DNA from: a virus | Lineage: Duplodnaviria; Caudoviricetes | Length of the DNA stretch: 59,302 nucleotides | Strand: one strand, 5' to 3' | IMG/VR virus record: IMGVR_UViG_3300025889_000130 | Coordinates: 1 to 59,302 of that record | In this document: positions 12,981-28,668 of the stretch, in pieces | How positions within the stretch are numbered: the first letter of the stretch is position 1 | How the letters are laid out: each line of letters starts with the position of its first letter | Translations under genes and position numbers: made by a program | The notes under the pieces: generated by a model | What the model was told of the DNA's origin: nothing | The model's database searches: none | Seen by the model: the letters and a program-made list of their open reading frames with translations, nothing else

Positions 12981-13007
12981 ACTTAGATGGCGGAATTGGG
13001 AGACGCA
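12981..13007 (+). pseudogene. 5' remnant of a tRNA-Leu-like gene
   Basis: AGATGGCGGAATTGGGAGACGCA resembles a Leu-type D-arm and has no downstream anticodon or T arm. Confidence 0.5.
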
Positions 13008-13012
13008 AATAA

Positions 13013-13090: not shown

Positions 13091-13330
13091 TTTTTACCAC
13101 CATCAAATAAACAAATAATCAAATAAATAAATAATACAGTATAGTATAAGATATATGATAAGAAAAACATAAGAAAATATATTAATTAAAAATGTTTTTA
13201 AAAAATTAAGACCAATAGCGTTTTGGCACGCTGGCCGCTGCCCGCCCCGTGCCAATCTGCAAGAAAAAAGTTTTTTGATTTTTTGGCAAAAAGAGTTGAC
13301 TTCACCGCCATTTTCCCCATTATGGAATAC

Positions 13331-13729: not shown

Positions 13730-13765
13730 CCCAAACCAAAAACCATTACGTATTCGGAGGATAAC

Positions 13766-14017
13766 ATGAAAACATTATTAACAATTATTACAAATTCTGG
13801 TTACATGACCCATGACCAACTCAAAGAAGTGAAGGAGGCATTTCCGAATATGCAAGTCGTTCTCCTTTGGGGGCAGAGGGCAAGGCAAATGGTTGCGGTG
13901 AAGTATGCAGAGGGGATGATAGCGGAAGGTGAAGAGGAGGGTGACTACATTCGCTCAGTCTTCTTTGATGTCGCCACATATGACAAGCTTGTCGATGTCT
14001 TCAACATCTGCGGCTAA
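13766..14017 (+). CDS. hypothetical protein
   Basis: GGAGGA RBS before the ATG. Confidence 0.65.
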   Translation: MKTLLTIITNSGYMTHDQLKEVKEAFPNMQVVLLWGQRARQMVAVKYAEGMIAEGEEEGDYIRSVFFDVATYDKLVDVFNICG

Positions 14018-14162
14018 TGGATTGGGGAATATTCCCCAATCTTCCCGTAGTGTTTTGGCACGCTGCCCGCTGCCCGCCCCGTGCCAATTTGCAAGAAAAA
14101 AGTTTTTTGATTTTTTGCGAAAAAGTTGTTGACCTAAAAGGATTTTCTGTCATTATTGGAGC

Positions 14163-14936
14163 ATGATTAACTTACTAAGCGACCCTTCAAAGATGCCCTG
14201 CAAGGGCTTTAACATTCCAGCAATGAAATTCTGCCCCGCTGCCAAGCTGGTCATGAACCTCTACAAAAAAGCGAAAAAAGAGTTGTCAAAGCTCATTTGC
14301 TCTTCGTGCTATGCTTGTAAGGGGATGTATTTGTTCCCCAACGTTCGGGACTCGTTGCAAAAAAAGGCTGAATTTGTCTTGCAATCTATTCGGGAAGACA
14401 ACGGGGACACGTTTGTCAAAGAGATGTGCGACCAAATTGAAAAAGCTTACTTCAAGAAAGGCGAAAAGAAAAAGCTGAAGAATCTAGACACGAATCTTTT
14501 TCGAGTCCATGATTCAGGCGACCTTTTCAACCCTGCCTATATTGATTGCTGGGTTAGGATTGCGAAGAATTTTCCAACCATTAACTTCTGGGTTCCAACT
14601 CGCGAACACGTTCGGGAAGAACAACTTCCCCACCTGCGCAAACTTGCGGAACTTCCCAATGTTGTTGTTCGCCCTTCCGCATTGGAACTGGATGAACCTG
14701 CGCCACAAGTCGAAGGCCTCGACGGAGGCACCGCAGTTTATACCGATGAAGCCAAGGCCAAGGCCGATGGACACATGATTTGCCCCGCCACCATTCACGC
14801 CCATCGCCTGGGAAGGAAGGGTTGGAAGGCACTGCCACAAAAGGAGCGAGCAAGGTTGGCGAGTTGTGCTGGTAACAACTGCACTGCCTGCTTTCTTAAA
14901 TGTTCAAAAAAACCAAAAGCCTATATGGCTCATTAA
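14163..14936 (+). CDS. GP88-family protein, copy 1
   Basis: SKMPC..FNIPA...C, CSSCYACKGMY, FRVHDSGD, FWVPTRE, NVVVRPSA and C-terminal CP...C..C..C motifs. Confidence 0.8.
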   Translation: MINLLSDPSKMPCKGFNIPAMKFCPAAKLVMNLYKKAKKELSKLICSSCYACKGMYLFPNVRDSLQKKAEFVLQSIREDNGDTFVKEMCDQIEKAYFKKGEKKKLKNLDTNLFRVHDSGDLFNPAYIDCWVRIAKNFPTINFWVPTREHVREEQLPHLRKLAELPNVVVRPSALELDEPAPQVEGLDGGTAVYTDEAKAKADGHMICPATIHAHRLGRKGWKALPQKERARLASCAGNNCTACFLKCSKKPKAYMAH

Positions 14937-15133
14937 AAAAGAATACAAATGCTACTAGGAGTCCTACTTATATGTTTTATCATAGGAGCCTCTTTTCTTT
15001 AGGCTCTACGGTTCGCGTGCTAATTTTTGGCACGCTAGCCGCTGCCCGCCCCGTGCCAACCTTACCGAGAAAAAACTTTCATTATCTTTCAAAAAGCATT
15101 GACATTAACAATTTTTTCTACATCATTAAACCC

Positions 15134-15466
15134 ATGATTAAAATTCAAAATTTAGAGTTCCGCCGAACCAAAACCCTTCACGACAATCCAAAAATTTACT
15201 GGGAAATTGTCAAATGGGATAAAATGAAATTAGATGGTGAGGAAAAGGAGTATTGTTTCAGCCTCGCCATTTGGGATAAGAATGATGAGGGTTGGGAACT
15301 TCGTTTTGTTGGTTCAAGGCCATTTGAACTTGACGGCATGGGAATTTTTTGGGAACTTGCCACCTTTGGACAAAAGTATTTAGATGCACTTTTTGATTTG
15401 ACAGAATCTTATCCTAATGTAGAATATGGCAATTATTATCAAGACAAGGTAAAAAATGAAAAATAA
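15134..15466 (+). CDS. hypothetical early protein (leaderless, MIKIQN)
   Basis: TTGACA(15099)-N16-CATCAT, with ATG 7 nt later. Confidence 0.7.
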   Translation: MIKIQNLEFRRTKTLHDNPKIYWEIVKWDKMKLDGEEKEYCFSLAIWDKNDEGWELRFVGSRPFELDGMGIFWELATFGQKYLDALFDLTESYPNVEYGNYYQDKVKNEK

Positions 15467-15677
15467 TTTTTATAGAGCAGTTGATAGAGATGGCAAGATG
15501 CCTGTCTTATGTAGCAAGGAATATGATATTCCAGAAACACATCCTTATTTTGTAAGATACAAAAACAACAAACCTGTTTCTTATCGTGGTACAGAAGAAA
15601 TTATATTTGAAAATGGAAAAGTTTATGATTATTCAATCAATGAATTTATTTATCCTGACAACTTATTAAAAGAATAA
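15456..15677 (+). CDS. hypothetical protein
   Basis: Overlaps the stop of the upstream gene. Confidence 0.55.
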   Translation: MKNNFYRAVDRDGKMPVLCSKEYDIPETHPYFVRYKNNKPVSYRGTEEIIFENGKVYDYSINEFIYPDNLLKE

Positions 15678-15875
15678 AATGACAATACAAGAAATTGAAA
15701 AAGATGTCCCACCTCATGTTGATGGGAAAAATCGTCGACAACTAATTGATCACCTTTTGGATGAAATGAACTCTGACGGGATGGCAAAACTTCTTGCTCT
15801 TGGCAAGCTGAAAATTCTTTGCCCAAAAAGAAAATAGTTGTTGACAAAACATTAAAAATTAACATACTACAAACC

Positions 15876-16106
15876 ATGAAACGCATATTCAAACTACCAG
15901 TATCTTGGACATCAATCGGAACAATGGAGATAAATGCTTCCAGCCTAGAAGAGGCTATTGCAATAGCAGAGGACGAACTTACGGGGCTTCCAGAAGATAG
16001 CGAATATCTAGAAGGGTCATTTGAAGTAAATGTTGATCTTATCGACGAAGTGAAAGCGGCGGTAGGAGAAGAAAACTTAGCCAACAATGCGATATTAAAC
16101 ATTTGA
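15876..16106 (+). CDS. hypothetical acidic protein (leaderless)
   Basis: TTGACA(15841)-N16-CATACT, with ATG 7 nt later. Confidence 0.7.
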   Translation: MKRIFKLPVSWTSIGTMEINASSLEEAIAIAEDELTGLPEDSEYLEGSFEVNVDLIDEVKAAVGEENLANNAILNI

Positions 16107-16138
16107 CAAAAACATAAAAATCAACAAACTAATAGACT

Positions 16139-16366
16139 ATGAACATTATCAAAAAAATCACTGACTTCTTCACCCCTAAGATGAACCTTGTTTATCAAAG
16201 CAAAAATGGAGACATTGACCTATACAAAGTTAATGCTTTTCATTACAAAAACAAGTTCGGCAACAAAAAGCTCCGCAAGGAAAACATTGGCATCCGCACT
16301 TGGTGTTACAACCGCAAAGGGTATCGTTCTTTTAGGTACGAGGGTATTCTTAGCTTGTCTAAATAA
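16139..16366 (+). CDS. hypothetical protein with WYL-like C-terminal pattern
   Basis: C..R..YRSFR..GI pattern; has its own promoter. Confidence 0.55.
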   Translation: MNIIKKITDFFTPKMNLVYQSKNGDIDLYKVNAFHYKNKFGNKKLRKENIGIRTWCYNRKGYRSFRYEGILSLSK

Positions 16367-16537
16367 TTTTGTTCGGTTATTCATGTTGCCCCGTTGAGAG
16401 CTTGTTGACTTGGTTCTCAACGGGGTTTTTTGGCACGCCAGCGGCTGCCCGCCCCGTGCCAATTTTTATCGTAAAAAATTTTTAATTTTCTGCAAAATTA
16501 ACTTGACCGCACGAAAAAAATCGCCATACTAGTAAGT

Positions 16538-16654
16538 ATGAAAATTAAGGTAAGAATTAAACATGGGATTTGGACGAAGTCCCGCCCACATAAAGTTAAG
16601 AAAAATCTTCTCCCAAGGGAACAAAAACACAAAAAAAGATTTGACACTGAGTAA
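16538..16654 (+). CDS. 38-aa basic peptide (leaderless)
   Basis: TTGACC(16503)-N16-CATACT, with ATG 7 nt later; MKIKVRIKHGIWTKSRPHKVKK... Confidence 0.5.
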   Translation: MKIKVRIKHGIWTKSRPHKVKKNLLPREQKHKKRFDTE

Positions 16655-16703
16655 AAAATCTATTTAATTAAACCTGATTATTAACCTAAAAACTGATAAA
16701 GCT

Positions 16704-17474
16704 ATGAAAACACTAAACATTGACATCTGCGGTTCTGACCGCACCCAAGCCACCCTCGAAGAAGTTTATGCGGTTCAAACGCCACAAAAGACCGATACAT
16801 GGACTCCTATCAGTCACAAGCTACTCATTGAGCAAACCAAAGAAAAGCTGGATGCAAACGGCTTTAACATCATTGCCGAAAATCACAATCTTGCCCGATT
16901 TGGCCAGCGTTATTTTGGCCTCATGCAGGTGCAAGATCGCAACGCTCCTGAAAATCCAGATCGTGCGACTGTGATTGGTTTGCGTAATGGGCATGACAAG
17001 TGCTTTCCTGCTGGTATTATGGCAGGGGATGCCCCATTTGTATGCAGCAACCTTGTTTTCAACAACGAAATCGTCATCGCTCGCCGCCATACGAAAAACA
17101 TCGACAATGAAAACATCGCTGGCAACATTTTCCACAAAGTTGCTAACGCCATCGGCCAACTTCGGGAATCCTGGCAAAGTCAGGAAAAGAGGGTAAACGC
17201 TTACAAAAGCTATGACCTCAGTTCCAATAGTGAGGCCAATGATTTAATCATTAAGGCATATCAAAATGGTGCTTGCTCCAAAACTCAGATCGCTGACATC
17301 GTGGATCAATGGAACACCCCGAATCACAACGAGTTCCTTGACCGCAACCTCTATTCTCTATACAATTCCTTTTCGGAAGTCTGGAAAGGAAACCTGGGAC
17401 TGCTCCCGAATCGTTCTACCCAACTCCACGCCTTGTTCGACGGCGTAGCTGAAGCCGAACTGGTCGAGGCATAA
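16704..17474 (+). CDS. DUF932-family protein
   Basis: GLRNGHDK, AG...FVCSNL and RRHT motifs; C-terminal LYSLYNSFSE. Confidence 0.8.
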   Translation: MKTLNIDICGSDRTQATLEEVYAVQTPQKTDTWTPISHKLLIEQTKEKLDANGFNIIAENHNLARFGQRYFGLMQVQDRNAPENPDRATVIGLRNGHDKCFPAGIMAGDAPFVCSNLVFNNEIVIARRHTKNIDNENIAGNIFHKVANAIGQLRESWQSQEKRVNAYKSYDLSSNSEANDLIIKAYQNGACSKTQIADIVDQWNTPNHNEFLDRNLYSLYNSFSEVWKGNLGLLPNRSTQLHALFDGVAEAELVEA

Positions 17475-17485
17475 AGTACCCCTAA

Positions 17486-17524
17486 TAGCCCCCGCCAAGG
17501 AAAAGGCCACCCTTGGCGGGGCTA
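17486..17524 (+). terminator. GC-rich hairpin before a dyad repeat
   Basis: TAGCCCCCGCCAAGG/CCTTGGCGGGGCTA stem. Confidence 0.6.
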
Positions 17525-17635
17525 AAAATTGGCACGCCAGCGGCTGCCCGCCCCGTGCCAACTTTACCACAAAAAAAATTTATTTTTTTTTGCAAAAAGC
17601 TTGACTTGACCCGATTTTCTGTCATTCTATAAAGC

Positions 17636-18205
17636 ATGATTAACCCATCTAACATAACTAAGTATCAACGTAACGATTATTGCTTACAGGAATTCTTGTT
17701 GTTCTGTATTTGCGTAACTGGAAAAAGGAGTGCAATTGAAAGCGTCAAGCTCGATGCCTTTCTTGATGACAACTTGTTTCCCATACCATTGAAACCTTTT
17801 CAGTTTATTAGGTTTCTCGACTCAATCGGTAAACTTGAGAGTCAACTGCAAAAGCATAGGATCTCACCCTATTCCCAAAGGCTCAAAAGTTTTCGTGCAG
17901 TTACTAAGCTAACAAATCTTGAACGAGTTGAAATAGAGGACTTGGTAACTATCCCAGGTATAGGACTAAAGACGGCAAGATTCTTTTTGTCTCACTCAAG
18001 AAAGAACTTTGATGAACCCGTCCTTGACACTCACATTTTGCGTTATTTAAGGAACAATGGGCATAACGCACCAAAGTCCACCCCACAAAACCCTGAGATA
18101 TACGCAAGGTTTGCCAAAATATTTAAAAATATTGCTAATAAGGCTAATAAGTCCGTCACCAAGCTTGACCTCGAAATCTGGAGGGAGTACAGCGGCTCAA
18201 CTTAA
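17636..18205 (+). CDS. HhH DNA glycosylase/AP lyase (8-oxoguanine glycosylase-like)
   Basis: LVTIPGIGLKTARFFL helix-hairpin-helix with catalytic K; VLDTHILRYL; LDLEIW. Confidence 0.8.
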   Translation: MINPSNITKYQRNDYCLQEFLLFCICVTGKRSAIESVKLDAFLDDNLFPIPLKPFQFIRFLDSIGKLESQLQKHRISPYSQRLKSFRAVTKLTNLERVEIEDLVTIPGIGLKTARFFLSHSRKNFDEPVLDTHILRYLRNNGHNAPKSTPQNPEIYARFAKIFKNIANKANKSVTKLDLEIWREYSGST

Positions 18206-18313
18206 GTGAGTTGGGGAATATTCCCCAATCGCAGGAGTTGGGGAATATTCCCCAATCAAAGTTTTTTAATTATTTTGGTTGACTTGAGCTAATTTTCTGT
18301 CATTCTGTAAAGC

Positions 18314-18727
18314 ATGATTAACTTATTACCCGCAGAGAAGCGAAAAGACCCAAGGTATCTTATCAATCACCTTAAGCCAGTAAAGGTTTACCGCAACCTT
18401 CACAAAAATTGTTATTCAGTTCAGCAAGATGGTTTAGTCAAAGGCCATTTCAAAGAATTAGCTATAAAAAACCCAAAGTTCCTAGTTCAAAGTATTGGCA
18501 GGGAACGAGTTCGCAGAACGCAATCCAAGAATGTCCATGCGTTTGTCATTGGTTACTTGGAAGACTTTGTTGGGCTTCGGGCAATAGCGGGAGAGTGTGT
18601 GACTTATAACCCCTATAAAAATGATTCATTCGTTTATCGGGACACTGGCAATCCAGTCAACAAAAGTAAGTATGCAGACTTTTTTTTCTCGACAGAGGGG
18701 AAAGCCATTGTTAAAGTAGAACGATAA
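18314..18727 (+). CDS. conserved phage hypothetical protein (leaderless)
   Basis: VYRNLHK..YSV, GRERV...SKNVHAFV.G and YNPYK motifs; promoter at 18279. Confidence 0.75.
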   Translation: MINLLPAEKRKDPRYLINHLKPVKVYRNLHKNCYSVQQDGLVKGHFKELAIKNPKFLVQSIGRERVRRTQSKNVHAFVIGYLEDFVGLRAIAGECVTYNPYKNDSFVYRDTGNPVNKSKYADFFFSTEGKAIVKVER

Positions 18728-18728
18728 A

Positions 18729-18920
18729 ATGAAATTTGATTATCCCAGACCACTTGAATTTTTCCACCCTGATTATGATGTCGCCTGTGGAGGCACAGAA
18801 GTACCAATGGTTAGCAAAGCAGGCACAGTGCTTTACGTGTGGAATAAGATAGACAAAGAATATGAATACTATCACTTTGAACATGATAGATTCTATCGAG
18901 AGTACGAAATTGAAATCTAA
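18729..18920 (+). CDS. hypothetical protein
   Basis: Coupled ORF (ACGGTEVP...LYVWN). Confidence 0.6.
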   Translation: MKFDYPRPLEFFHPDYDVACGGTEVPMVSKAGTVLYVWNKIDKEYEYYHFEHDRFYREYEIEI

Positions 18921-18931
18921 TATCAAACAAC

Positions 18932-19198
18932 ATGGAAAAATCATCACTCATTAACCTTATCTGCAAAAAAGACCACCTTGGAACCATGCTTCCGATTTCT
19001 AACGAGCCAGAATTTGATTCTGATACTGGAGAATGGGATTTGTGGTTTGCCTATGAAGACTTGCAAGACCCTGACCGCAATGACGATATGACTCATATTG
19101 GTTTTTCGTCCAAGCAAGCCGCTGAAAATTGCATTGGCGAACTTGTTACAATGCGTGGACAAAAAAGTCTCCAACTTGAAAAAGAGCTGTCTCTATAA
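18932..19198 (+). CDS. hypothetical protein
   Basis: ORF within the operon. Confidence 0.55.
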   Translation: MEKSSLINLICKKDHLGTMLPISNEPEFDSDTGEWDLWFAYEDLQDPDRNDDMTHIGFSSKQAAENCIGELVTMRGQKSLQLEKELSL

Positions 19199-19216
19199 CA
19201 ATAATTAAGAATCAAA

Positions 19217-19402
19217 ATGACTATCAAACTATTAGAAGATATTAAAGTTCTCCCGTATTACGAACTATTCAAAGCTGGCAATTACAAGGCGCACCTTGCT
19301 GTGAATCAACCCAACTGGCAAGAAGAGGGCTTAGTCTTTATTAGTAATGGAGCAACAGACTTGCTTCTTTCCAAGGATGATTATCAAATTGTTTCAAAAT
19401 AA
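19217..19402 (+). CDS. hypothetical protein
   Basis: ORF within the operon. Confidence 0.55.
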   Translation: MTIKLLEDIKVLPYYELFKAGNYKAHLAVNQPNWQEEGLVFISNGATDLLLSKDDYQIVSK

Positions 19403-19853
19403 AAATAATAACCAAAAATAAAAATGATTGTTGAAAAAGTAGTATATGGCTATATCGTCCAACGCTTTAAAGAGGACGGTGAATTTATTGAGCAAGATAA
19501 CTTTGTGGCCGATGGAGACGTCGCCTACGAAGACGAAGATGGAAATCCGCTGGATCATCTCGATCTTTGCAAATATTATCATACTTTTGATGTCAAATAA
19601 CCAAATAATAAATAATTAAATAACAAATAACTTTCGTTAGGTTAATCTGCCCCGTCGAGGTTTATGATGATCCTCGGCGGGGCTTTTTGGCACGCCAGCG
19701 GCTGCCCGCCCCGTGCCAACTTATATTTGCTAGCAAAAGTATTACAAAAGCTGCCCCCCTAAAAAAACACTTTTTCGCAAAAAAAAGTTTGACCACGAGC
19801 TTTTTTCTGTCAAACTAGGGGGACATTAAGATTAACCTGAACGAAAGAAAATT

Positions 19854-20033
19854 ATGTTATCAGTAAAACGCCACCCGAATCTTGACAACTGGTTTGAAGT
19901 CCGCATATTTGGAGAACTCATTGACCAATTTACGTCTGCCGTAAAAGCCATCCAGTTTGCTGAGAAAATTAAGAAAAAAGAAAGGTTTGATATTGTCCAT
20001 ATTGACCTGAAGCGTCAAGATGAAGAAAATTGA
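19854..20033 (+). CDS. 59-aa RHPNLDNW-family protein, paralog 1
   Basis: Translated by hand: MLSVKRHPNLDNWFEVRIFG...; follows the conserved leader. Confidence 0.75.
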   Translation: MLSVKRHPNLDNWFEVRIFGELIDQFTSAVKAIQFAEKIKKKERFDIVHIDLKRQDEEN

Positions 20034-20049
20034 ATCATAATTATTAAAA

Positions 20050-20403
20050 TTGAAAAAACAGATGACCACTATATACCAGCACACACCTCACTACACTATT
20101 ACCCCTTATTACGTTTACGCCGACATCGCAATCCAGGATGTAAAAAACAGGCTCGCCGCCGCAGAAATTCAAATTAGTGTAAGTGAACAACAAAACAGAA
20201 TTGACAACCCGATTGGCACAGGTCCTGGCGGGCGTGTAAGGTTGGGCGATGATATGCTCCCTTCAACTTACCTTATCAGCGTCAGAGATGAAGATGCAGA
20301 AAAAGCTCGGCGGATTCTTGTACATAATTTTGATTCTTTTTCAAGAGATAGGATTGTAAAAATTCTTGCTACTGATACAAAAAAAGATGAAAATTTGTTT
20401 TGA
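20050..20403 (+). CDS. hypothetical protein
   Basis: ORF in cassette. Confidence 0.55.
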   Translation: MKKQMTTIYQHTPHYTITPYYVYADIAIQDVKNRLAAAEIQISVSEQQNRIDNPIGTGPGGRVRLGDDMLPSTYLISVRDEDAEKARRILVHNFDSFSRDRIVKILATDTKKDENLF

Positions 20404-20456
20404 CAATTTAAAGTAATTAACCAGAATAAAACGCATTAACCTGAACTAAGAAAAAA

Positions 20457-20726
20457 ATGAATCAAGATTACGACTACCTTCAACTCCACCATGATGATTT
20501 CGGCCTTGTCGTAAAGGGCTATAAAGAGGATGGTTACCCGTCCCACTCCGTGCTTGCAGGGCAAACCCGCATTGACTATCTGAACACTTTCGACACTGAA
20601 GAGGAAGCTATTAAGGCGTACCCAGAACTCGCCCCAAAAGGCGAAACGCAATGGGGTTCGACCTGGGCGGACGCTCAGATTAAGGACGTTTCTTGGCTTC
20701 CTGATAGACCAGATTTGAGTTTGTAA
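20457..20726 (+). CDS. hypothetical protein
   Basis: Own promoter and ATTAACC leader; SVLAGQTRI motif. Confidence 0.65.
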   Translation: MNQDYDYLQLHHDDFGLVVKGYKEDGYPSHSVLAGQTRIDYLNTFDTEEEAIKAYPELAPKGETQWGSTWADAQIKDVSWLPDRPDLSL

Positions 20727-20728
20727 TG

Positions 20729-20861
20729 GGTTGATCTGCCTCGCCAGGGTTTGTGGTTATCCCCTGGCGGGGCTTCACTTTTCGCTTGTGGGCGGGAATA
20801 GGCTGATTACTGCGTAGCGGGGTCGGCCTCTCCGCTTACGGGCGGGGAGGGCTTCTTTATT
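20729..20861 (+). ncRNA. candidate structured RNA element, copy 1
   Basis: Three GC-rich hairpins; near-identical copy at 21974-22106 whose differences preserve pairing. Confidence 0.5.
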
Positions 20862-21031
20862 TTGGCACGCCAGCGGCTGCCCGCCCCGTGCCAACTCATA
20901 TTTGATAGCAAAAGTATTACAAAAGCTTCCCCAAAAAAAAAATCACTTTTTTGCAAAAAAAGCATTGACCAAAGAAGAAATTTCCCCATACTTATTTTTA
21001 TAACCTAAAGATTAACCTAATTAAAAAAACT

Positions 21032-21280
21032 ATGAAACACCTCTCACAAGCTCTCTCAGAACTCGGACTCTCACAAAATTGGTTCGATGAATTGAAATCG
21101 GAAGTTGAATCGGACAAAACATTTTCTGAAAATGGATTGCTTACCACTACAAGAGAAGATGTCGAAGATGAGTTTGTCCAACTCGATGTCCGTCTTGAAA
21201 AAATTGATGACAATGACGAAAGTTTTGTTGACATGGATGCAGTTTCTTCTACAATGGCAAACGTATTTAACCAAAATTAA
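21032..21280 (+). CDS. highly acidic small protein
   Basis: Promoter at 20965 plus leader; D/E-rich. Confidence 0.65.
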   Translation: MKHLSQALSELGLSQNWFDELKSEVESDKTFSENGLLTTTREDVEDEFVQLDVRLEKIDDNDESFVDMDAVSSTMANVFNQN

Positions 21281-21282
21281 AA

Positions 21283-21438
21283 ATGACAATCGAAACCCTC
21301 AATCTTATTATCGACCAAAACGCTGACGCTGCCCTTGCTGGCGACGAATCCGCAATTTACAACATACAATGGGCTGAAGAGCAGTTGACAAAATTGGCTT
21401 TCCTTAAAGTTCGTGAACTAGACCAAAAACAAAAATGA
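21283..21438 (+). CDS. 51-aa protein, tandem paralog of the next gene
   Basis: LNLIIDQNADAALAGDESA vs INLIFKQNSADAIAGNESA. Confidence 0.65.
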   Translation: MTIETLNLIIDQNADAALAGDESAIYNIQWAEEQLTKLAFLKVRELDQKQK

Positions 21439-21638
21439 GTAGACTTGAATCCATAAATCTTATTTTTAAGCAAAATAGTGCGGATGCTATTGCTGGAAAT
21501 GAATCCGCCTTTTCTAAAATCGAATTGGCTGCAGAGCAGTTGATAGAGTTAGGCCGTTTGAATAAATTAGCATGTCGGCATTTTAGAGAGTGTGCTCAAA
21601 TTAAAGCGGGAATATTTAAAAGCGATTTAGAAAAATGA
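21435..21638 (+). CDS. hypothetical protein, tandem paralog of the previous gene
   Basis: ATGA overlap and similarity to the upstream ORF. Confidence 0.65.
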   Translation: MSRLESINLIFKQNSADAIAGNESAFSKIELAAEQLIELGRLNKLACRHFRECAQIKAGIFKSDLEK

Positions 21639-21973
21639 ATATACTACAAAACATATTACTTGCTATTATCTTTGGCAATTTTGTTGTTGCCGCCGTGATG
21701 GTATTACTTTACATTCAATTTAGCATTGAGGATAAAAAAATGAAAAAAGAACTGGAAGAAATGTATGATGAGTATTATGGGCAAGATAAAAAATCTAATT
21801 AAGAAGGAGAATAAAATGAATCATTTAGTTATTATTGATAAGAAGACTTATTTTGAATATAGGCTTGGGAATCATTGTGGCAGTATGCCGAAGGCGCATT
21901 ACCCACAAGTTCAAGACGTTGTAAGTTATTTGAATAATTATTATTCTTTTGACACTCATGAGGTAATCTAATA

Positions 21974-22106
21974 GGTTAATCTGCCCCGCCAGGGTTTGTG
22001 GTTATCCCCTGGCGGGGCTTCACTTTTCGCTTGTGGGCGGGAATAGGCTGATTACTGCGTAGCGGGGTCGGCCTCTCCGCTTACGGGCGGAGAGGGCTTC
22101 TTTATT
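21974..22106 (+). ncRNA. candidate structured RNA element, copy 2
   Basis: Duplicate of 20729-20861. Confidence 0.5.
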
Positions 22107-22216
22107 TTGGCACGCCAGCGGCTGCCCGCCCCGTGCCAACTTTACCGCAAAAAAAAAATCACTTTTTCACAAAAAAAGGTATTGACTGCATAGCTTTTTC
22201 TGTCATACTGTAGGGC

Positions 22217-22990
22217 ATGATTAACCTACTGAGCAACCCATCCAAAATGCCCTGCAAGGGCTTTAACATTCCAGCAATGAAGTTCTGTCCAGCCGCCAAG
22301 TTAGTGATGAACCTCTGGAAAAAAGCATCCAAGGAACTTTCTAAGCTCATTTGTTCCTCTTGTTATGCTTGCAAGGGTATGTACCTTTTCCCCAGTGTTC
22401 GGGATTCTTTACAAAGTAAAGCTGATTTTCTCTTAAAATCTCTACGTGAAAACAACGGCGATGAATTTGTGGCGGAAATGTCCAAGCAAATTCAGTCCGC
22501 CTATTTTAAGAAGGGCGAAAAGAAAAAACTAAAGAATTGCGACACCAATTTTTTTCGTGTCCATGATTCGGGCGATTTATTCAACCCTGCATATATTGAT
22601 TGCTGGGTTAGGATTGCGAAGAATTTCCCAACCATTAACTTTTGGGTTCCAACCCGTGAACACGTTCGGGAGGAACAACTTCCCCACCTACGCAAACTTG
22701 CGGAACTTTCAAATGTTGTTGTCCGCCCTTCCGCATTGGAATTGGACGAACCTGCGCCACAAGTCGAAGGTCTTGACGGAGGCACAGCAGTTTATACCGA
22801 TGAAGCCAAGGCCAAGGCCGATGGACACATGATTTGCCCCGCCACCATCCACGCCCATCGCCTGGGAAGGAAGGGTTGGAAGGCACTGCCACAAAAGGAG
22901 CGAGCAAGGTTGGCGAGTTGTGCTGGTAACAACTGTACTGCCTGCTTTCTTAAATGTTCAAAAAAACCAAAAGCCTATATGGCTCATTAA
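22217..22990 (+). CDS. GP88-family protein, copy 2
   Basis: Same length as 14163..14936 and near-identical C-terminal half. Confidence 0.8.
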   Translation: MINLLSNPSKMPCKGFNIPAMKFCPAAKLVMNLWKKASKELSKLICSSCYACKGMYLFPSVRDSLQSKADFLLKSLRENNGDEFVAEMSKQIQSAYFKKGEKKKLKNCDTNFFRVHDSGDLFNPAYIDCWVRIAKNFPTINFWVPTREHVREEQLPHLRKLAELSNVVVRPSALELDEPAPQVEGLDGGTAVYTDEAKAKADGHMICPATIHAHRLGRKGWKALPQKERARLASCAGNNCTACFLKCSKKPKAYMAH

Positions 22991-23229
22991 AAAAGAATAC
23001 AAATGCTATCAGGAATCCTACTTATATGTTTTATCATAGGTGCCACCTTTCTTTAGTTCCTACGGTTCGCGTGCTAATTTTTGGCACGCTAGCCGCTGCC
23101 CGCCCCGTGCCAACTTTACCGAGAAAAAAAAATCACTTTTTTGCGTTTTTTTGCAAAAAAGGGGTTGACCTCACGCTTTTTTTTGTCATACTAGGGGAAC
23201 ATTAAGATTAACCCTAACAAAAGAAAACC

Positions 23230-23382
23230 ATGACAGAACAGCAAATCCAATACGAACTGACTTTAATTGATTGGCTTAACGCTCGCCTTGAAAAGTGTCT
23301 GCAAATGGACATGGATAACAGGAATGAGCTTATCAAGCTCAGTCAAGAATTAAAGGCAAAGTTCGTCGAAACCGAAGATTAA
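23230..23382 (+). CDS. 50-aa hypothetical protein
   Basis: Follows the promoter+leader module; MTEQQIQYEL... Confidence 0.65.
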   Translation: MTEQQIQYELTLIDWLNARLEKCLQMDMDNRNELIKLSQELKAKFVETED

Positions 23383-23463
23383 AAAAAATCACTTTTTTGC
23401 AAAAAAGATATTGACCGCAAGCGAATTTTCCCCATACTTACTTTTATAACCTCAAGATTAACC

Positions 23464-23712
23464 ATGACCATTCAAACACTAGCACACGCTGATTCCCTTG
23501 AACGCCTTTCTTTTTCTGATTTGAATTGGGAAGAATATGAAGCCTGCAAGGCTGGCCTTATTTACTACGAAGGCTTGCGGGACTACTTAGAAGCAAACTG
23601 CCCAGAAAACAAGGAAAAGATTTTGGACATCGAAGACACCATTTCAGCCCATTATACTGTCCTTGCTGACATCGTAGGCGGGGCAAAGGTAAATTATGAA
23701 TCTATTATCTAA
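23464..23712 (+). CDS. hypothetical protein
   Basis: Promoter at 23411; AGATTAACC directly before ATG. Confidence 0.65.
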   Translation: MTIQTLAHADSLERLSFSDLNWEEYEACKAGLIYYEGLRDYLEANCPENKEKILDIEDTISAHYTVLADIVGGAKVNYESII

Positions 23713-23876
23713 TGAGCTTAGAAAAATCAATTAAACATAAAAAAGAATATCGCAAGCCTTATTACAAATCAGGAAAATTCGACAAGACTTGTCGCCCAGG
23801 AGGTTCTTGCCCATATTGCAAATCAAATAGAAAACATAAACACAAAAAACAAAAGCTAATTTATAATTATGAATAA
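23712..23876 (+). CDS. 54-aa basic Cys-containing protein
   Basis: MSLEKSIKHKKEYRKPY...DKTCRPGGSCPYC; TAATG coupling to upstream gene. Confidence 0.65.
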   Translation: MSLEKSIKHKKEYRKPYYKSGKFDKTCRPGGSCPYCKSNRKHKHKKQKLIYNYE

Positions 23877-24200
23877 ATTATCAACACAACTAAATAAGTT
23901 TATTGCTAATAATAAAAAAAAGATTGCTCTTCATTATAAAGAAGCAAGGCGAAATACAATGACAGTCGAAGGTATGCTGTTTGCAAGTAAAGTAAATAAA
24001 AAATAATTTCTTATGGTTAATCTGCCCCGTCGAGGTTGATGGTGATCCTCGGCGGGGTTTTTTTGGCACGCCACGGGCTGCCCGCCCCGTGCCAACTTTA
24101 CCGCAAAAAAAAATTTATTTTTTTTCAAAAAAGTGTTGACCGAACGTTTTTTTCTGTCAAACTAGGGGAAGATTAAGATTAACCATAACGAAAGAAAAAG

Positions 24201-24332
24201 ATGAACATCCAAACCCTCGCCCAACTCTCCACTCAAGAACTTGCTATCCTGAACGGGTGGCATGATGACCAAGCCATGACTGGCAATGAAATTGACCAAA
24301 TGGTCGAGCAATTCCAAAAGGAGGACAAGTAA
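24201..24332 (+). CDS. 43-aa hypothetical protein
   Basis: Follows the leader module; TAATG coupled to the next ORF. Confidence 0.6.
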   Translation: MNIQTLAQLSTQELAILNGWHDDQAMTGNEIDQMVEQFQKEDK

Positions 24333-24526
24333 TGAAAGTCATTAGGACAATCAAAGTTGAAGGCATCAGCGGACACGGGAAAAACAGAATCCGTGAGCAT
24401 GGAACCGATTGGGACGTTCTGGCCGAAAGCGGTGAAAAAATGTTAATAGTGCCAAGCGGCCAAGACATCAGCGGCTGGTGGCGATGGATATTGAAACGTC
24501 AAGACCCACATTTTCGACAGGTGTAA
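24332..24526 (+). CDS. hypothetical protein
   Basis: GGAGG RBS; HGKNRIREHG..W motif. Confidence 0.65.
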   Translation: MKVIRTIKVEGISGHGKNRIREHGTDWDVLAESGEKMLIVPSGQDISGWWRWILKRQDPHFRQV

Positions 24527-24675
24527 GTTTTGCTAATTGGCACGCCACGGGCTGCCCGCCCCGTGCCAACTTTACCGCAAAAAAAAATTTATTTTTTTTC
24601 AAAAAAGTGTTGACCGAACGTTTTTTTCTGTCAAACTAGGGGAAGATTAAGATTAACCCAAACCAAAAAACCACT

Positions 24676-24909
24676 ATGACAAACCTTATCAAAGCTATCG
24701 TTCTCGCCGCTCCTGTTTCTTACCCTTACTCTATTGGGCAAGAAACAAGTTTTATCCTTTCAAATGCTGATTACAAAGTTGGCCAAGAAATTTCTTTCAA
24801 CAACGGCTTATCAATCAAAGTAACCGAGCTTCCAGTCATTGATGAGCAAGCCTACGAAGCAATGAAGTCTCGCCACATTGAAATTTCCCACCGCAACGGC
24901 GTAGAATAA
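24676..24909 (+). CDS. SHRNGVE-family protein, paralog 1
   Basis: Follows the leader module; C-terminus shared with 27446..27709. Confidence 0.7.
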   Translation: MTNLIKAIVLAAPVSYPYSIGQETSFILSNADYKVGQEISFNNGLSIKVTELPVIDEQAYEAMKSRHIEISHRNGVE

Positions 24910-25001
24910 AAAAATCACTTTTTCGCAAAAAAAGAGTTGACCGAACGTTTTTTTCTGTCAAGCTAGGGGAAGATTAAGATTAACCCAAACGAAAGAAAAC
25001 C

Positions 25002-25181
25002 ATGCTATCAGTAGAACGCCACCCAAACCTTGACAACTGGTTCGAAGTCCGTGCATTTGGAAAAATGCTCGACCAATTCACATCTGCCGTCAGAGCTATA
25101 CAATTCGCAAAGAAAATACAAAAACAAAAGAAAATTGATAGCATTTATATTAACATTAAGCGTGAATATGATGAAGATTGA
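25002..25181 (+). CDS. 59-aa RHPNLDNW-family protein, paralog 2
   Basis: MLSVERHPNLDNWFEVRAFG... Confidence 0.75.
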   Translation: MLSVERHPNLDNWFEVRAFGKMLDQFTSAVRAIQFAKKIQKQKKIDSIYINIKREYDED

Positions 25182-25374
25182 ATCGCCCTTTGTCCTTACT
25201 TCTTTGAACGAATACAATATCATTCTAAGAAAAGATAATCCATTTTATAAGCCAACAGGAAGGGATTTAATTCTGAGTATTGATGCAGTATTAGCAAACG
25301 AAGATAGATTGGAAGAAATTACTGATCAACTAGGCTTGCCAGAAAGTCAAGCAGTTTTTTTATTGCATGACTGA
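25168..25374 (+). CDS. hypothetical protein
   Basis: MMKIESPFVL..., overlapping the upstream stop. Confidence 0.5.
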   Translation: MMKIESPFVLTSLNEYNIILRKDNPFYKPTGRDLILSIDAVLANEDRLEEITDQLGLPESQAVFLLHD

Positions 25375-25519
25375 CAAAAGCTGGCACGCCAGCGGCTGCC
25401 CGCCCCGTGCCAATTTTACCACAAAAAAAAATTTATTTTTTTTACAAAAAGGGTTGACCTCACGCTTTTTTTTGTCATACTGGGGGAAGATTAAGATTAA
25501 CCCTAACGAAAGAAAAAAG

Positions 25520-25666
25520 ATGACCTTCGTTCAAAATCTCCAACTCAAAATTCGCCTCCAGAACAGCATTGCTAAAAGCAAGGCCGCCCTCGAAGAGATT
25601 AAGGCCGACATAGAGGCACAAAAGGCAGAGATAGCTCGCCTCAAAAAAATTCTCTCTGATATGTAA
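25520..25666 (+). CDS. 48-aa coiled-coil LQLKIRLQNSIAKS-family protein, paralog 1
   Basis: Follows the leader module. Confidence 0.75.
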   Translation: MTFVQNLQLKIRLQNSIAKSKAALEEIKADIEAQKAEIARLKKILSDM

Positions 25667-25703
25667 AAAGATTTGACGTTTACATAAATTTCCACATTCT
25701 CAT

Positions 25704-25925
25704 ATGTATAACCTGATATTGAAAATGATTACTATCAAACGCCACTCGAACCTCGACAACTGGATTAACCTTGCCATTAACGGCAAAGTTTTCAAGCAAC
25801 TGAATTCCCGCTCGAAAGCGGTTAAGATTGCTCACGCTATGGGCAAAATTAAGGGATTGAAGGTGCTTGACCTTGACGTTGGGGAAAGGCATCATGATGG
25901 CAAAACTATTTCAGTAAAATCATAA
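25704..25925 (+). CDS. RHSNLDNW-family protein, diverged paralog 3
   Basis: MITIKRHSNLDNWINLAING... Confidence 0.65.
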   Translation: MYNLILKMITIKRHSNLDNWINLAINGKVFKQLNSRSKAVKIAHAMGKIKGLKVLDLDVGERHHDGKTISVKS

Positions 25926-25943
25926 ACCTCACAAACGTAGTAC

Positions 25944-26150
25944 ATGGAATGGAGTAAAATCATGAATTTGAATCACGAACAAATTGCTTTTTTGCGAGAA
26001 ACCCTAGAAAAGAGAAAGGGTGGCGAATTGTACGCCAAGGAAACTCAAGACCCTATGTATGAGGCTTACCAGGAAGGGGTGATTGAAGAAATTGACGAAT
26101 TGCTCGACATTCTTGGGCCCCGCTCGACTGTTATCGTCACCCAGGGATAA
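25944..26150 (+). CDS. hypothetical protein
   Basis: ORF ends directly at an 18-bp palindrome. Confidence 0.55.
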   Translation: MEWSKIMNLNHEQIAFLRETLEKRKGGELYAKETQDPMYEAYQEGVIEEIDELLDILGPRSTVIVTQG

Positions 26151-26170
26151 TTGGGGAATATTCCCCAACC

Positions 26171-26317
26171 CGCCAAGCCACCCAAGCCAAGCTCCAAACT
26201 TTGCTTTCTGATAAAGACGAACTCGACATCGAGTTCGCCCTCAAGGATAGCATCATGAACCGCGCCATGATTAGCAGTCGTGTTCGTAAAATGAAACGTC
26301 AAGGCGATGAAGATTGA
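26171..26317 (+). pseudogene. 5'-truncated ORF remnant
   Basis: RQATQAKLQTLLSDKDELDIEFALKDSIMNRAMISSRVRKMKRQGDED* has no upstream start or promoter; 3' flank ATCGCCCTTTGT is shared with 25182. Confidence 0.45.
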
Positions 26318-26512
26318 ATCGCCCTTTGTACTCTGCCCCGTCGAGGTTTTTGAATTTTCTCGACGGGGCTTTTTTTGGCACGCCAGCGGCTGCCCGCCCC
26401 GTGCCAACTTTACCGAGAAAAAAATTTATTTTTTTTCAAAAAAGAGTTGACCGCATGCTTTTTTCTGTCAAACTAGGAGAAGATTAAGATTAACCATAAC
26501 GAAAAAACCACT

Positions 26513-26701
26513 ATGAAAAACGAAACAATCGAAAACCCACAAACCGAATCCGAATTCATGGCAGACTGCATGGAGGATTTGGTTTACTACGAAGAACTAT
26601 TAGCTCATGCGGGAAAGAATGGCTCTGATAACAACATGAGCGTCGAACACATCGAGGCGGCGATTGCCGATTTGAAATTTGTAATGGGCATTAACTATTA
26701 G
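26513..26701 (+). CDS. acidic hypothetical protein
   Basis: Follows the leader module. Confidence 0.65.
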   Translation: MKNETIENPQTESEFMADCMEDLVYYEELLAHAGKNGSDNNMSVEHIEAAIADLKFVMGINY

Positions 26702-26881
26702 ATTAGCTTTTTCGCAAAAAAGTTTTGCTAATTGGCACGGGGCGGGCAGCCGCTGGCGTGCCAACTTTACCGAGAAAAAAAAATCACTTTTTTGCATTTT
26801 TTCGCAAAAAAGGGGTTGACCTCACGCTTTTTTCTGTCAAACTAGGGGAAGATTAAGATTAACCCTAACGAAAGAAAAAAG

Positions 26882-27028
26882 ATGACCCTCGTCCAAAAGC
26901 TCCAACTCAAGATTCGCCTCCAGAACAGCATTGCCAAAAGTAAGGCCGCTCTTGAAGAGATTAAGGCAGAAATGGAGGCACAAAAGGCAGAGATAGCCTA
27001 CCTCAAAAAAATTCTCTCTGATATGTAA
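26882..27028 (+). CDS. LQLKIRLQNSIAKS-family protein, paralog 2
   Basis: MTLVQKLQLKIRLQNSIAKSKAALEEIKAEMEAQKAEIAYLKKILSDM. Confidence 0.75.
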   Translation: MTLVQKLQLKIRLQNSIAKSKAALEEIKAEMEAQKAEIAYLKKILSDM

Positions 27029-27090
27029 AAAAATTTGACATTTGCCTAAATTTCCACATTCTCATTGATATAACCTTAACCATAACCATT

Positions 27091-27270
27091 ATGAAAATCG
27101 AAAAACACGACGTAATTATCTACAAAGAAAAAATCTATCATGTCATCCAAGCCGATGCTGAAAATCTTATCGGTCGCCTTTACCGCACAAACAAACAATT
27201 CATAATTCCAACTTCTCAAGCTAAGAAGCACCCTTTCTTCCCTAACGGATTAACCTTCCTTAAACATTAA
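27091..27270 (+). CDS. 59-aa hypothetical protein
   Basis: Own promoter; MKIEKHDVIIYKEKIYHV... Confidence 0.6.
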   Translation: MKIEKHDVIIYKEKIYHVIQADAENLIGRLYRTNKQFIIPTSQAKKHPFFPNGLTFLKH

Positions 27271-27445
27271 CTTTTTCGCAAAAAAGTTTTGCTAATTGGC
27301 ACGCCAGCGGCTGCCCGCCCCGTGCCAACTTTACCGAGAAAAAAAAATTACTTTTTTGCGTTTTTTTGCAAAAAAGGGGTTGACCTCACGCTTTTTTTTT
27401 CCATACTAGGGGAAGATTAAGATTAACCCAAACGAAAGAAAAAAG

Positions 27446-27709
27446 ATGACCAATTCACCAAAAATCCACGTTAAAGCAAAAGTTACAAACTCCTCATCAT
27501 CCTGGCTTAAAGACGGCTCTGTTCGGGATGCGCTCGTTTCGTTAGAAAACGCTGTCGTTGGCAAACTGATTAGAACAACATTCGGATACAGTCTTAAAAT
27601 CACCGAGATAGTCGGAGAGTACGTGCCAGAAACCACACTTTCTGACGAAGAATATGAGGCTCTAAAGGCTCGTGAAATTGAAAAAAGCCACCGCAACGGC
27701 GTAGAATAA
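27446..27709 (+). CDS. SHRNGVE-family protein, paralog 2
   Basis: Follows the leader module; YEALKAREIEKSHRNGVE. Confidence 0.7.
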   Translation: MTNSPKIHVKAKVTNSSSSWLKDGSVRDALVSLENAVVGKLIRTTFGYSLKITEIVGEYVPETTLSDEEYEALKAREIEKSHRNGVE

Positions 27710-27804
27710 AAAAATCACTTTTTCGCAAAAAAGGTATTGACCGCACGGCTTTTTTTCCCATACTTAAGGATATTAAGATTAACCCTAACGAAAGAAAAAC
27801 CATC

Positions 27805-28119
27805 ATGAAATCATATTCCGTCTCCTTCCTCACACAAATTTTCCGCAATGGTGTTTTCGCCAAAGTCGAAAAGAACGCGCTGGTCATCCCAGCAAACTCT
27901 GCCGATGAAATTACTGACGAAAAAGTTAAGCAGTACGCAAGGCATCTTGTTAAAGAAGGCTCCAGCAAAGCTTACAATCCTGATAACATTTTTGAACCCA
28001 TCACCATCACCCGCGCTTTCTACAAAATCGAAAAAATCAAACTCATTCCAGCAATTGATTCTTCTAATTGGGTAGAACACGCTCGCAAGGAAGATTCTCG
28101 CTACTCCTTAGTAAACTAA
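27805..28119 (+). CDS. hypothetical protein
   Basis: Follows the leader module. Confidence 0.7.
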   Translation: MKSYSVSFLTQIFRNGVFAKVEKNALVIPANSADEITDEKVKQYARHLVKEGSSKAYNPDNIFEPITITRAFYKIEKIKLIPAIDSSNWVEHARKEDSRYSLVN

Positions 28120-28313
28120 TCAAGGTTATAGGATTGGGGAATATTCCCCAATCGCTGGGGTTGGGGAATATTCCCCAACTTATCTTTGCTTGTAAAAGTA
28201 TTTAAAAAGCCTCGCAAAAAAAAATCACTTTTTTGCAAAAAAGGTATTGACCAAACGCTTTTTTTTCCCATACTTAAGGATATTAAGATTAACCCTAACG
28301 AAAGAAAAACCAT

Positions 28314-28574
28314 ATGAAAAAAATCACACTCTCCTCCTCTAAGATTAACGCAGTTCACGATACCCTTAAAAGTATGCATGAAAATTTCGCAGTTGAGCAA
28401 GTTAGCGGGCGTTATGACCCGAAACCTGTAATTGATTGCATTGAAAAAGGTTTGTTCCACCAAGCCGCTGAATGGGCGATTTGCTCTTATTTAGAACAGA
28501 ATGGTGATACAGTCGATGTTGATAACTACATTGCAGACCTTATTGACGATTTCGAGTTTATTGTAAACTCGTAA
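28314..28574 (+). CDS. hypothetical protein
   Basis: Follows the leader module. Confidence 0.7.
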   Translation: MKKITLSSSKINAVHDTLKSMHENFAVEQVSGRYDPKPVIDCIEKGLFHQAAEWAICSYLEQNGDTVDVDNYIADLIDDFEFIVNS

Positions 28575-28668
28575 AAAAAAATCACTTTTTTGCAAAAAAG
28601 GTATTGACCAAACGCTTTTTTTTCCCATACTAAAGGATATTAAGATTAACCCAAACGAAAGAAAAAAG

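Follow-up and report, generated by a model that had tools for sequence, protein, structure and literature searches.

Promoter-early stem-loop (PeSL) cassettes of T4-type phages recombine with one another, which explains differences among close relatives (PMC2839356; PMC4122927), and in RB49 and phi1 the stem-loop lies mostly between or over the promoter boxes (PMC2839356). We found cassettes of a similar kind in the early region of the viral record IMGVR_UViG_3300025889_000130, all 59,302 bp of which form the window analysed here. The early genes of this phage share a short leader motif, AGATTAACC, and some cassettes carry an antisense copy of it (an anti-leader) at their left edge. As judged from their arrangement, the anti-leaders are the 5' edge of a predicted terminator module, made up of anti-leader, GC-rich hairpin and U-tract, within mobile, PeSL-like terminator-promoter cassettes. 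Their function may be RNA pairing with the shared leader, in cis or in trans, a reading to which we assign a probability of roughly 40%.

The cassettes share most features of PeSLs. Both combine a repeated, strong sigma70-like early promoter with an AT-rich upstream tract and a stable stem-loop, which here is a predicted terminator, and both cluster among small ORFan genes, where recombination leads to insertions, replacements and reordering (PMC2839356; PMC4122927). Unlike PeSLs as described there, the cassettes in the window have hairpins 90-230 nt upstream of the -35 box and not between or over the promoter boxes, possess an extra conserved palindrome (TTGGCACG-N17-CGTGCCAA or TTGGGGAATATTCCCCAA), and end in a conserved leader or a leaderless ATGATTAAC start instead of a Shine-Dalgarno sequence. 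The anti-leader at the left edge of some cassettes is a further difference; antisense leader copies are not mentioned for PeSLs in the passages of PMC2839356 and PMC4122927 covered here.

Pairing between the 5' and 3' untranslated regions (UTRs) of one mRNA has been described for icaR in Staphylococcus aureus (PMC3868564) and hbs in Bacillus subtilis (PMC5737220). There, part of the 3' UTR can base-pair over a short stretch with the message's own 5' UTR or ribosome-binding region, and in the window a comparable pairing of 9-13 bp is predicted in three of four units, once over a start codon. However, icaR and hbs are single host genes with experimental proof, whereas the pair described here recurs on several phage operons in a mobile cassette, is known from sequence alone, and does not have a Shine-Dalgarno sequence as its target.

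The leader motif is strongly overrepresented. AGATTAACC has 18 exact matches on the two strands of the window, compared with 0.65 expected (100 shuffles, maximum 4). Fifteen matches are on the plus strand, and 14 of these follow a TTGAC-N16/17-(C)AnnCT promoter at a distance of 8-17 nt, which agrees with the approximately 14 leader-sharing genes of a preliminary description of this DNA. As that description also observed, the motif is usually followed by AACGAAAG (9 of the 14 leaders, with near-variants in 3 more). All three minus-strand copies (19640, 21974 and 24015), together with a variant at 20729, adjoin the 5' arm of a GC-rich hairpin, and only these four anti-leaders occur in the early region among the seven plus-strand 9-mers that are at most one mismatch from GGTTAATCT. 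Each of them, at the junctions J1 to J4 (a junction is named after the preceding gene), ends on the base that immediately precedes a 12-bp GC-rich hairpin, and the four hairpins with neighbouring hairpins fold at -42 to -81 kcal/mol (z -3.9 to -7.1). The antisense strings reported earlier at 19631-19648, 20729-20737, 21972-21982 and 24011-24023, each directly 5' of a GC hairpin, were thus correctly placed. The modules, all on the plus strand, are as follows.

19620-19648, plus strand: anti-leader J1, with core CTTTCGTTAGGTTAATCT (18 nt, 19631-19648) and an imperfect inverted repeat that reaches back to 19620
19649-19683, plus strand: terminator hairpin of family A, with a 12-bp stem in the minimum-energy fold, then UUUUU
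20729-20737, plus strand: anti-leader J2, variant GGTTGATCT, with flank ATGGGTTGATCT (20726-20737); one G-U pair with AGATTAACC
20738-20849, plus strand: terminator of family B, consisting of hairpin 20738-20773, a long second hairpin and a U-rich tail; near-identical repeat of 21983-22094
21972-21982, plus strand: anti-leader J3, TAGGTTAATCT, complementary at 11 of 11 positions to its own leader (21009-21019) and over 10 nt to the next 5' end (22219-22228)
21983-22094, plus strand: second copy of the family B terminator, first hairpin 21983-22018
24007-24023, plus strand: anti-leader J4, TTTCTTATGGTTAATCT, with core TTATGGTTAATCT (24011-24023); 13 bp with leader 23455, including one G-U pair, across start codon 23464
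24024-24058, plus strand: terminator hairpin of family A, then UUUUUUU
16375-16385, plus strand: degenerate fifth anti-leader, GGTTATTCATG, 2 nt before terminator hairpin 16388-16426

The fifth copy is absent from the preliminary description; read as its reverse complement (CATGAATAACC), it agrees with the leaderless 5' end CATGATTAACC in 10 of 11 positions. Seven GC-rich hairpins in all were chosen by eye and then folded; a consensus scan misses hairpins with loops longer than 8 nt. Anti-leaders precede five of the seven (four canonical and one degenerate), equivalent to five of the six that have a U-tract; the hairpin at 17489 has neither motif nor U-tract. A layout of single-stranded seed, Rho-independent terminator and U-tail is predicted for the family A modules (19631-19688 and 24011-24065) and for 16375-16432, and weakly for the family B modules, which have a poor U-tail after their first hairpin.

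Upstream of their cores, the four anti-leaders differ, and each extension matches an actual leader variant. The reverse complement of 19620-19648 at J1 agrees with 19829-19860, which comprises the next leader and the opening codons of gene 19854, in 27 of 32 columns with 3 gaps, and this mirror of an adjacent leader and gene start makes J1 look like a local inverted duplication. At J4 the reverse complement matches the leaders at 24176 and 26487 (17/18 each, one gap), and at J3 it matches the leader of its own unit at 21009 (14/15). The pairings proposed earlier were recovered: the 21972 copy matches leader 21009 over 11 nt, the 24011 copy matches leader 24176 (13 nt) and leader 23455 over the 23464 start (13 bp, one G-U), and the 20729 variant still pairs with AGATTAACC through one G-U. 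What the preliminary description lacked was the cassette context, in which the copies are the left edges of mobile PeSL-like cassettes and form inverted repeats with the next leader.

Approximately 25 near-identical promoters lie between 13.3 and 28.6 kb. They consist of TTGAC(C), a spacer of 16-17 nt, and CATACT, CAAACT or CATTAT, many with a TG-extended -10 box, and A/T-rich tracts such as AAAAAAATCACTTTTTTGCAAAAAAG directly precede TTGACC. From left to right, the order within a cassette is an optional anti-leader, a terminator hairpin of family A or B, a palindrome, an A/T tract, the promoter, and a leader with A(A/T)GATTAACC. Family A hairpins read GCCCCGTCGAGG..., and family B has GCC(C/T)CGCCAGGG... 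plus a second long hairpin. Anti-leaders are found with terminator modules only, and never in the shorter cassettes that begin at the A-tract. The 3' edge of a cassette is either AGATTAACC and an A-rich leader that lacks a Shine-Dalgarno sequence, or a leaderless ATGATTAAC.

13223-28651, plus strand: early region, with ~25 repeated promoter cassettes, 15 TTGGCACG-N17-CGTGCCAA palindromes, 14 AGATTAACC leaders and 5 leaderless ATGATTAAC starts
19829-19860, plus strand: right arm of the inverted repeat at J1, covering a class I leader and the beginning of gene 19854
21009-21019, plus strand: class II leader AGATTAACCTA, belonging to the unit that ends at J3
23455-23467, plus strand: leader AGATTAACCATGA of the unit that ends at J4, abutting the start codon
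24176-24193, plus strand: class I leader that follows J4 and serves as right arm of the inverted repeat there
22217-22228, plus strand: leaderless 5' end ATGATTAACCTA, downstream of J3
13331, 14163, 17636, 18314 and 22217, plus strand: leaderless genes that start with ATGATTAAC, five unrelated genes that all read M-I-N (Met-Ile-Asn)

In the leaders, an A-rich tract (AACGAAAGAAAAAAG) adjoins the target motif. The motif lies 8-17 nt from the -10 box and, relative to the ATG, anywhere from overlapping it to 20 nt upstream; with such variability it is a 5'-proximal element and not a fixed promoter or ribosome-site element. On the basis of -10 spacing only, transcription is predicted to start at the A of the ATG in leaderless genes and at the A before GATTAAGATTAACC in the commonest leader class. 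The preliminary description had noticed the leaderless genes that begin with ATGATTAAC, and because five unrelated genes share this start, the cassette seems to supply their first three codons. The leadered form AAGATTAACC is one base apart from ATGATTAACC. Readings of the leader as boxA, as an epsilon enhancer or as complementary to 16S rRNA, which go back to partial resemblances, were set aside.

Duplex predictions support the possibility of RNA pairing. The 25-mers before the five motif-bearing hairpins form duplexes with means of -12.0 to -17.5 kcal/mol over 19 leaders, whereas the two motif-less hairpins average -6.6 and -8.4, and 500 random 25-mers give -6.1 +/- 2.4. Such a prediction of 3' ends against leaders had been proposed in the preliminary description; it clearly separates the anti-leaders from random sequence, but does not single out a unit's own leader over the next one. 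Within the window, own-unit pairing at predicted transcript ends amounts to only 7-9 bp for J1, 9 bp with a G-U pair for J2, 11 bp for J3, and 13 bp with a G-U pair for J4. Both one-sided differences in the window (A>G at J2, and J4 relative to 23455) yield G-U on the transcribed strand. In the related genomes described below, own-unit pairing is 11 bp at J3 of G001, is mismatched at J2 and J4 of G001, and is 9 bp at J2 and 7 bp at J3 of L234. Among the possible partners (own unit, next unit or any leader), none accounts for every case, and the only statement that always holds is that some leader in the same genome is complementary.

Six scans of viral contigs yielded one close relative, G001 (43.6 kb), and three distant records, and one metagenome scan yielded the contigs L233 to L235; 3-4 genomes are available per junction. 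Scans with 14-mers gave 118 and 102 matches, most of which are due to chance, with cassette hallmarks at G001 loci only. Four further contigs with TTGGGGAATATTCCCCAA are unrelated. Aligned early-region segments of G001 and the window are 77-92% identical, and their early genes are the same but differently ordered, with breakpoints at cassettes. Cassette joints are also found in metagenomic data: a population contig from run X4 fuses position 23463, where AGATTAACC ends, to 19861 in the body of another gene, another metagenome contig links the A-tracts at 19767 and 23394, and other joints lie inside cassettes. In four DNA runs with short contigs, there are no variants at motif positions among the rows listed. 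Sequences at orthologous positions are listed below.

J2 anti-leader: GGGTTGATCT in the window, GGGTTAATCT in G001, GGGTTAATCT in L234
J3 anti-leader: TAGGTTAATCT in the window, TGGGTTATTCT in G001, ATGGTTAATCT in L234 and L233
J4 anti-leader: TATGGTTAATCT in the window, TATGGTTATTCT in G001; not covered by L234 and L233
Leader of unit 3, which ends at J3: AGATTAACCTA in the window, AGAATAACCCA in G001, AAATTAACCCA in L234

The motif is kept at the orthologous junctions J2 (3/3 genomes), J3 (4/4) and J4 (2/2), and at J2 and J3 this is so although the hairpin family differs, the window having family B and its relatives family A. In unit 3, the leader and anti-leader of the window differ from those of G001 at two positions, both of which are compensated, with 11/11 pairing in each genome. 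The J3 anti-leader of G001 favours its own leader, with a predicted -15.6 kcal/mol as opposed to -6.9 to -10.3 for the other four. A rough estimate puts the chance of such a compensated pattern at 0.004-0.08, assuming ~17% divergence and independent drift, and with a range that depends on flanking positions and multiple testing.

The distant relative G004 has ~50% protein identity in one shared early gene, and carries [A/T]GATTAA at nine promoter-proximal sites, two of which are AAGATTAACC. Since G004 keeps the leader motif with no anti-leader at the three terminators found in it, the leader motif is old, and probably functional, and the anti-leader is specific to the lineage of the window, G001, L233 and L234. 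In another highly diverged record, G002 (L247), the hairpin finder detected no U-tract terminators in its 20 kb.

A possible history is that a leader was duplicated in inverted form and then spread with the terminator module through cassette recombination. Early mRNAs with predicted ends at these modules would expose a segment of 9-18 nt 5' of the hairpin, complementary to A(A/U)GAUUAACC of ~20 early messages, and the expected contact is between the leader segment AGAUUAACC and the 3'-end segment GGUUAAUCU. Because the seed lies 2-8 nt past the stop codon at J2 to J4, terminating ribosomes would expose it transiently. If pairing occurs in cis, the segment would bind the 5' end of its own transcript, and the closed 5'-3' form could mask the 5' terminus, or the start codon at 23455-23467. 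If it occurs in trans, other early messages would be targeted, as by an sRNA (small RNA) embedded in a 3' UTR, with seed, hairpin and U-tail on one RNA and target and A-rich tract on the other. Either arrangement might tune the stability or translation of early messages.

The trans arrangement has precedents in Hfq-dependent 3'-UTR sRNAs, whose seed, terminator and U-tail face an A-rich ARN tract in the target. CpxQ, SroC and GlnZ are reportedly Hfq-dependent sRNAs that come from, or are embedded in, 3' UTRs. The modules in the window resemble these sRNAs in that a predicted seed lies directly 5' of a Rho-independent terminator, an A-rich tract lies by the targets, and one seed could reach ~20 messages. 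Unlike the sRNAs, they are inferred from sequence layout, and the U-tail of family B is poor after the first hairpin. It is conceivable, albeit unlikely, that each such operon supplies from its 3' end a seed of up to 18 nt (GGUUAAUCU) that pairs with the common leader of ~20 early messages, and thereby silences or stabilises the early class collectively; a gene captured between two cassettes would then join the circuit automatically.

Several observations weigh against RNA pairing as the function of the anti-leaders. The unit-3 compensation is suggestive, but comes from one unit and was recognised post hoc. Covariation across relatives, an analysis proposed in the preliminary description, gave these two compensated positions but also three uncompensated substitutions: the J4 anti-leader of G001 (GGTTATTCT) opposes leader AGATTAACC with a U-U, the unit-2 leader of G001 (AGATAAACC) opposes GGTTAATCT with an A-A (-7.2 kcal/mol), and in L234 the unit-3 leader AAATTAACCCA retains only 7 contiguous bp with ATGGTTAATCT (-6.6 kcal/mol). 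At the orthologous J1 junction, both relatives that cover it (L234 and L235) have the terminator but not the motif. GGTTAATC is in none of the three terminators found in G004, and a test of whether another lineage pairs a different leader with its own pre-terminator segment, for which G004 served, came out negative to marginal (mean duplex energies of -6.6 to -8.4, compared with -5.1 +/- 1.4 for controls). In the window, the terminator at 26335 lacks the motif, the next downstream leader equals or surpasses the own-unit leader as a partner in all four cases, and the four anti-leaders do not count as four separate events, since just two repeated terminator families carry them, A (19649 and 24024) and B (20738 and 21983). 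None of the 20 listed sequencing runs with parts of the region, which come from freshwater and estuary metagenomes, is RNA. The earlier proposal of an sRNA or of pairing in cis therefore stands in part, sustained by the strong predicted duplexes and one double compensation, and weakened by the three uncompensated changes and the motif's absence from J1 in two relatives and from G004 terminators. The same strong duplexes and double compensatory change keep RNA pairing as our leading interpretation.

The anti-leaders could instead be functionless by-products, in which an inverted duplication of the leader, produced by template switching or illegitimate recombination amid palindromes, was fused to a hairpin and now hitch-hikes and slowly decays. 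This explanation is a serious possibility, if a doubtful one. The 27/32 inverted copy at J1 includes the start codon of the next gene and so resembles a duplication tract rather than a selected seed, and the confinement of the copies to two terminator families, the missing motif at J1 of L234 and L235 and in G004, and the single substitutions at J2, J3, J4 and J5 are all in keeping with it. Rearrangement of inverted repeats is seen locally, in the flipped palindrome interior at 26732. Also, the anti-leader with the first bases of the hairpin arm, GGTTAATCTGCCCC, agrees at 13/14 positions with the reverse complement of discriminator and leader, GGGGAAGATTAACC, when one GATTAA unit is removed, and this likeness suggests a CCCC microhomology junction. 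However, independent drift is unlikely to produce the double compensation seen in unit 3 of G001, and a tract of only 11 nt is too small for ordinary gene conversion over ~620 bp. Decay would also not predict that the motif is held at three junctions despite 77-92% identity and a differing hairpin family, or that five of six U-tract terminators have it. A rather improbable variant of pairing is a closing stem or insulator in read-through RNA, in which the anti-leader pairs with the next leader, closes the intergenic cassette, and either hides the downstream leader or start codon or makes a double-stranded processing site. The adjacent downstream leader is indeed the best or co-best partner for J1 (-22.5 kcal/mol with leader 19829), J3 (-16.0) and J4 (-18.1), and the J1 duplex spans the start codon of the next gene. 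Hypothetical read-through RNAs form the stem in all four cassettes, with pair probabilities of 0.93-1.00 except for the last J3 pair (0), and the stem stacks on the terminator hairpin; however, any inverted repeat is predicted to pair, so these folds are not independent evidence. The terminators are strong (12 GC-rich pairs and a U-tract), and read-through should therefore be rare. In addition, the 5' ends that follow J3 of G001 and J2 of L234 lack the motif, and J2 and J4 of G001 are centrally mismatched with the next leader.

Explanations at the level of DNA seem to us weaker again. AGATTAACC might be bound by a protein, such as a regulator of early promoters or a nicking or homing enzyme, or might mark a recombination boundary of the cassette, and so serve exchange or looping. 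Four cassettes have the motif in inverted orientation at both edges, the X4 joint falls exactly on its last base (23463) while other joints are within cassettes, and gene order changes between the window and G001 at cassette boundaries. Variable spacing of the motif to the -10 box and ATG is likewise compatible with a DNA site, and an HNH endonuclease gene is present at 12354-12968. The left copy, however, is in only 4-5 of ~25 cassettes, the spacing between copies (161, 189, 245 and 280 bp) has no helical phasing, there is no target-site duplication, and no integrase or transposase is among the 30 window proteins scanned, in a record that is 39% complete. A compensated change in both arms would moreover be unexpected for a protein site. 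Correia elements of Neisseria, which are miniature inverted-repeat elements with promoters and terminators, invite comparison. The units in the window are similarly small (160-290 bp), have inverted-repeat bounds, a terminator-like hairpin and an outward promoter, and are predicted to fold as transcripts. They differ from such elements in the lack of a target-site duplication, in inverted arms of 9-29 nt at four cassettes with spacing of 161-280 bp and differing internal modules, in the presence of both arms in only 4-5 of ~25 cassettes, and in a right arm that includes the start of the downstream gene. Finally, the preliminary description raised the option of a single-stranded DNA fold around the dyad, reminiscent of the Frpo promoter. 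That inverted repeats flank hairpin-rich DNA is all that speaks for this option, which we regard as barely credible: the fold keeps the -35 and -10 boxes within its loop domain, where the repeat arms do not bring them into duplex, the promoters are of the ordinary duplex sigma70 type with TG-extended -10 boxes, and the phage has double-stranded DNA (dsDNA) packaged by a large terminase.

Some further features of the cassettes were noted. In the loop of the family B hairpin (20738-20773 and 21983-22018) stands GGTTATC, and the sequence complementary to it, AUAACC, is found where class II leaders are predicted to begin (for example 20998-21003). A second contact beside the anti-leader is possible there, but not in G001, which has family A hairpins at these positions. 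The TTGGCACG-N17-CGTGCCAA palindrome, with invariant arms and a GC-rich interior, is present in 15 copies between 13223 and 27328 (for example 19687-19719), located between terminator and promoter, and also precedes early promoters in four further viral records (L005 to L008), where the interiors differ. TGGCACG-N6-GC-W can be read on both of its strands and resembles a sigma54 -24/-12 element; a dimer-binding site and an RNA hairpin are equally possible readings of the palindrome. In the copy at 26732-26764, the 17-nt interior is reverse-complemented relative to that at 27296 and the arms and flanks are unchanged, which points to template switching or recombination in the 8-bp arms. A perfect 18-bp palindrome, TTGGGGAATATTCCCCAA, has six copies (14022, 18211, 18238, 26151, 28134 and 28161), often in tandem pairs 27 bp apart, and takes the place of the TTGGCACG palindrome in some cassettes and, in many copies, throughout G001. 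The tract upstream of the promoters holds a third palindrome, CTTTTTTGCAAAAAAG, which is exact at 23392, 28228 and 28585 and has six looser copies. On the minus strand, three A/T hairpins in these tracts (23161, 26812 and 27376) scored as terminator-like. A candidate promoter inside J3 (TTGACA-N17-TAGGTT, 21949-21977) is not conserved in G001 and was dropped. We also rejected a reading as integron attC sites; GTTAATC and GATTAAC are each one base off the core consensus, and their order is opposite to that of attC.

CheckV estimates the record to be 39% complete, so the full genome should be roughly 150 kb, and the window derives from an uncultured, lytic, terminase-packaged dsDNA phage of about this size. 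Encoded in it are rIIA, rIIB, DNA ligase, PhoH, an ERCC4-type nuclease, the large terminase and HNH endonucleases. It has no close cultured relative: megablast of 19000-25000 found no match among 50,697 phage records, protein searches gave distant matches only, and the closest matches of rIIA are only 26-38% identical. An Rfam search at E<=1 found two tRNAs only and nothing relevant to the cassettes. The early region (13.2-28.7 kb) is dense in small ORFans, and includes two GP88-like paralogues and DUF932, Ogg-HhH-like and L5 gp82-like proteins. The GP88-like paralogues (14163-15060 and 22217-23113) are identical at 674 of 774 nt, and a pair of small genes (19854-20033 and 25002-25181) at 140 of 180 nt; such paralogous early genes are segmental duplicates that carried their cassettes along. 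Just upstream of the first early cassette, tRNA-Leu(TAA) and tRNA-Met(CAT) at 12266-13090 border the minus-strand HNH endonuclease gene (12354-12968). The 244-amino-acid protein encoded at 31765-32499 weakly matches a family of phage RNA polymerase sigma factors (E 1e-6), and is possibly involved in a switch from sigma70-type early promoters.

Promoter-terminator cassettes are known to drive the shuffling of genes in large lytic phages, and have so far been seen purely as transcription signals. If the anti-leaders are relics, they still record inverted duplications at cassette edges and help explain how cassettes evolve. A functional anti-leader edge would mean that the cassettes, beyond their role in transcription, link the two ends of one early message, or several early messages with one another, at the post-transcriptional level. 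Because the promoters are near the sigma70 consensus, this idea can be tested by reporters in a laboratory host. If it is true, the phage would possess a compact and portable means to time or limit early expression, and a natural example of 5'-3' pairing or of 3'-end seeds that are reused within one genome.

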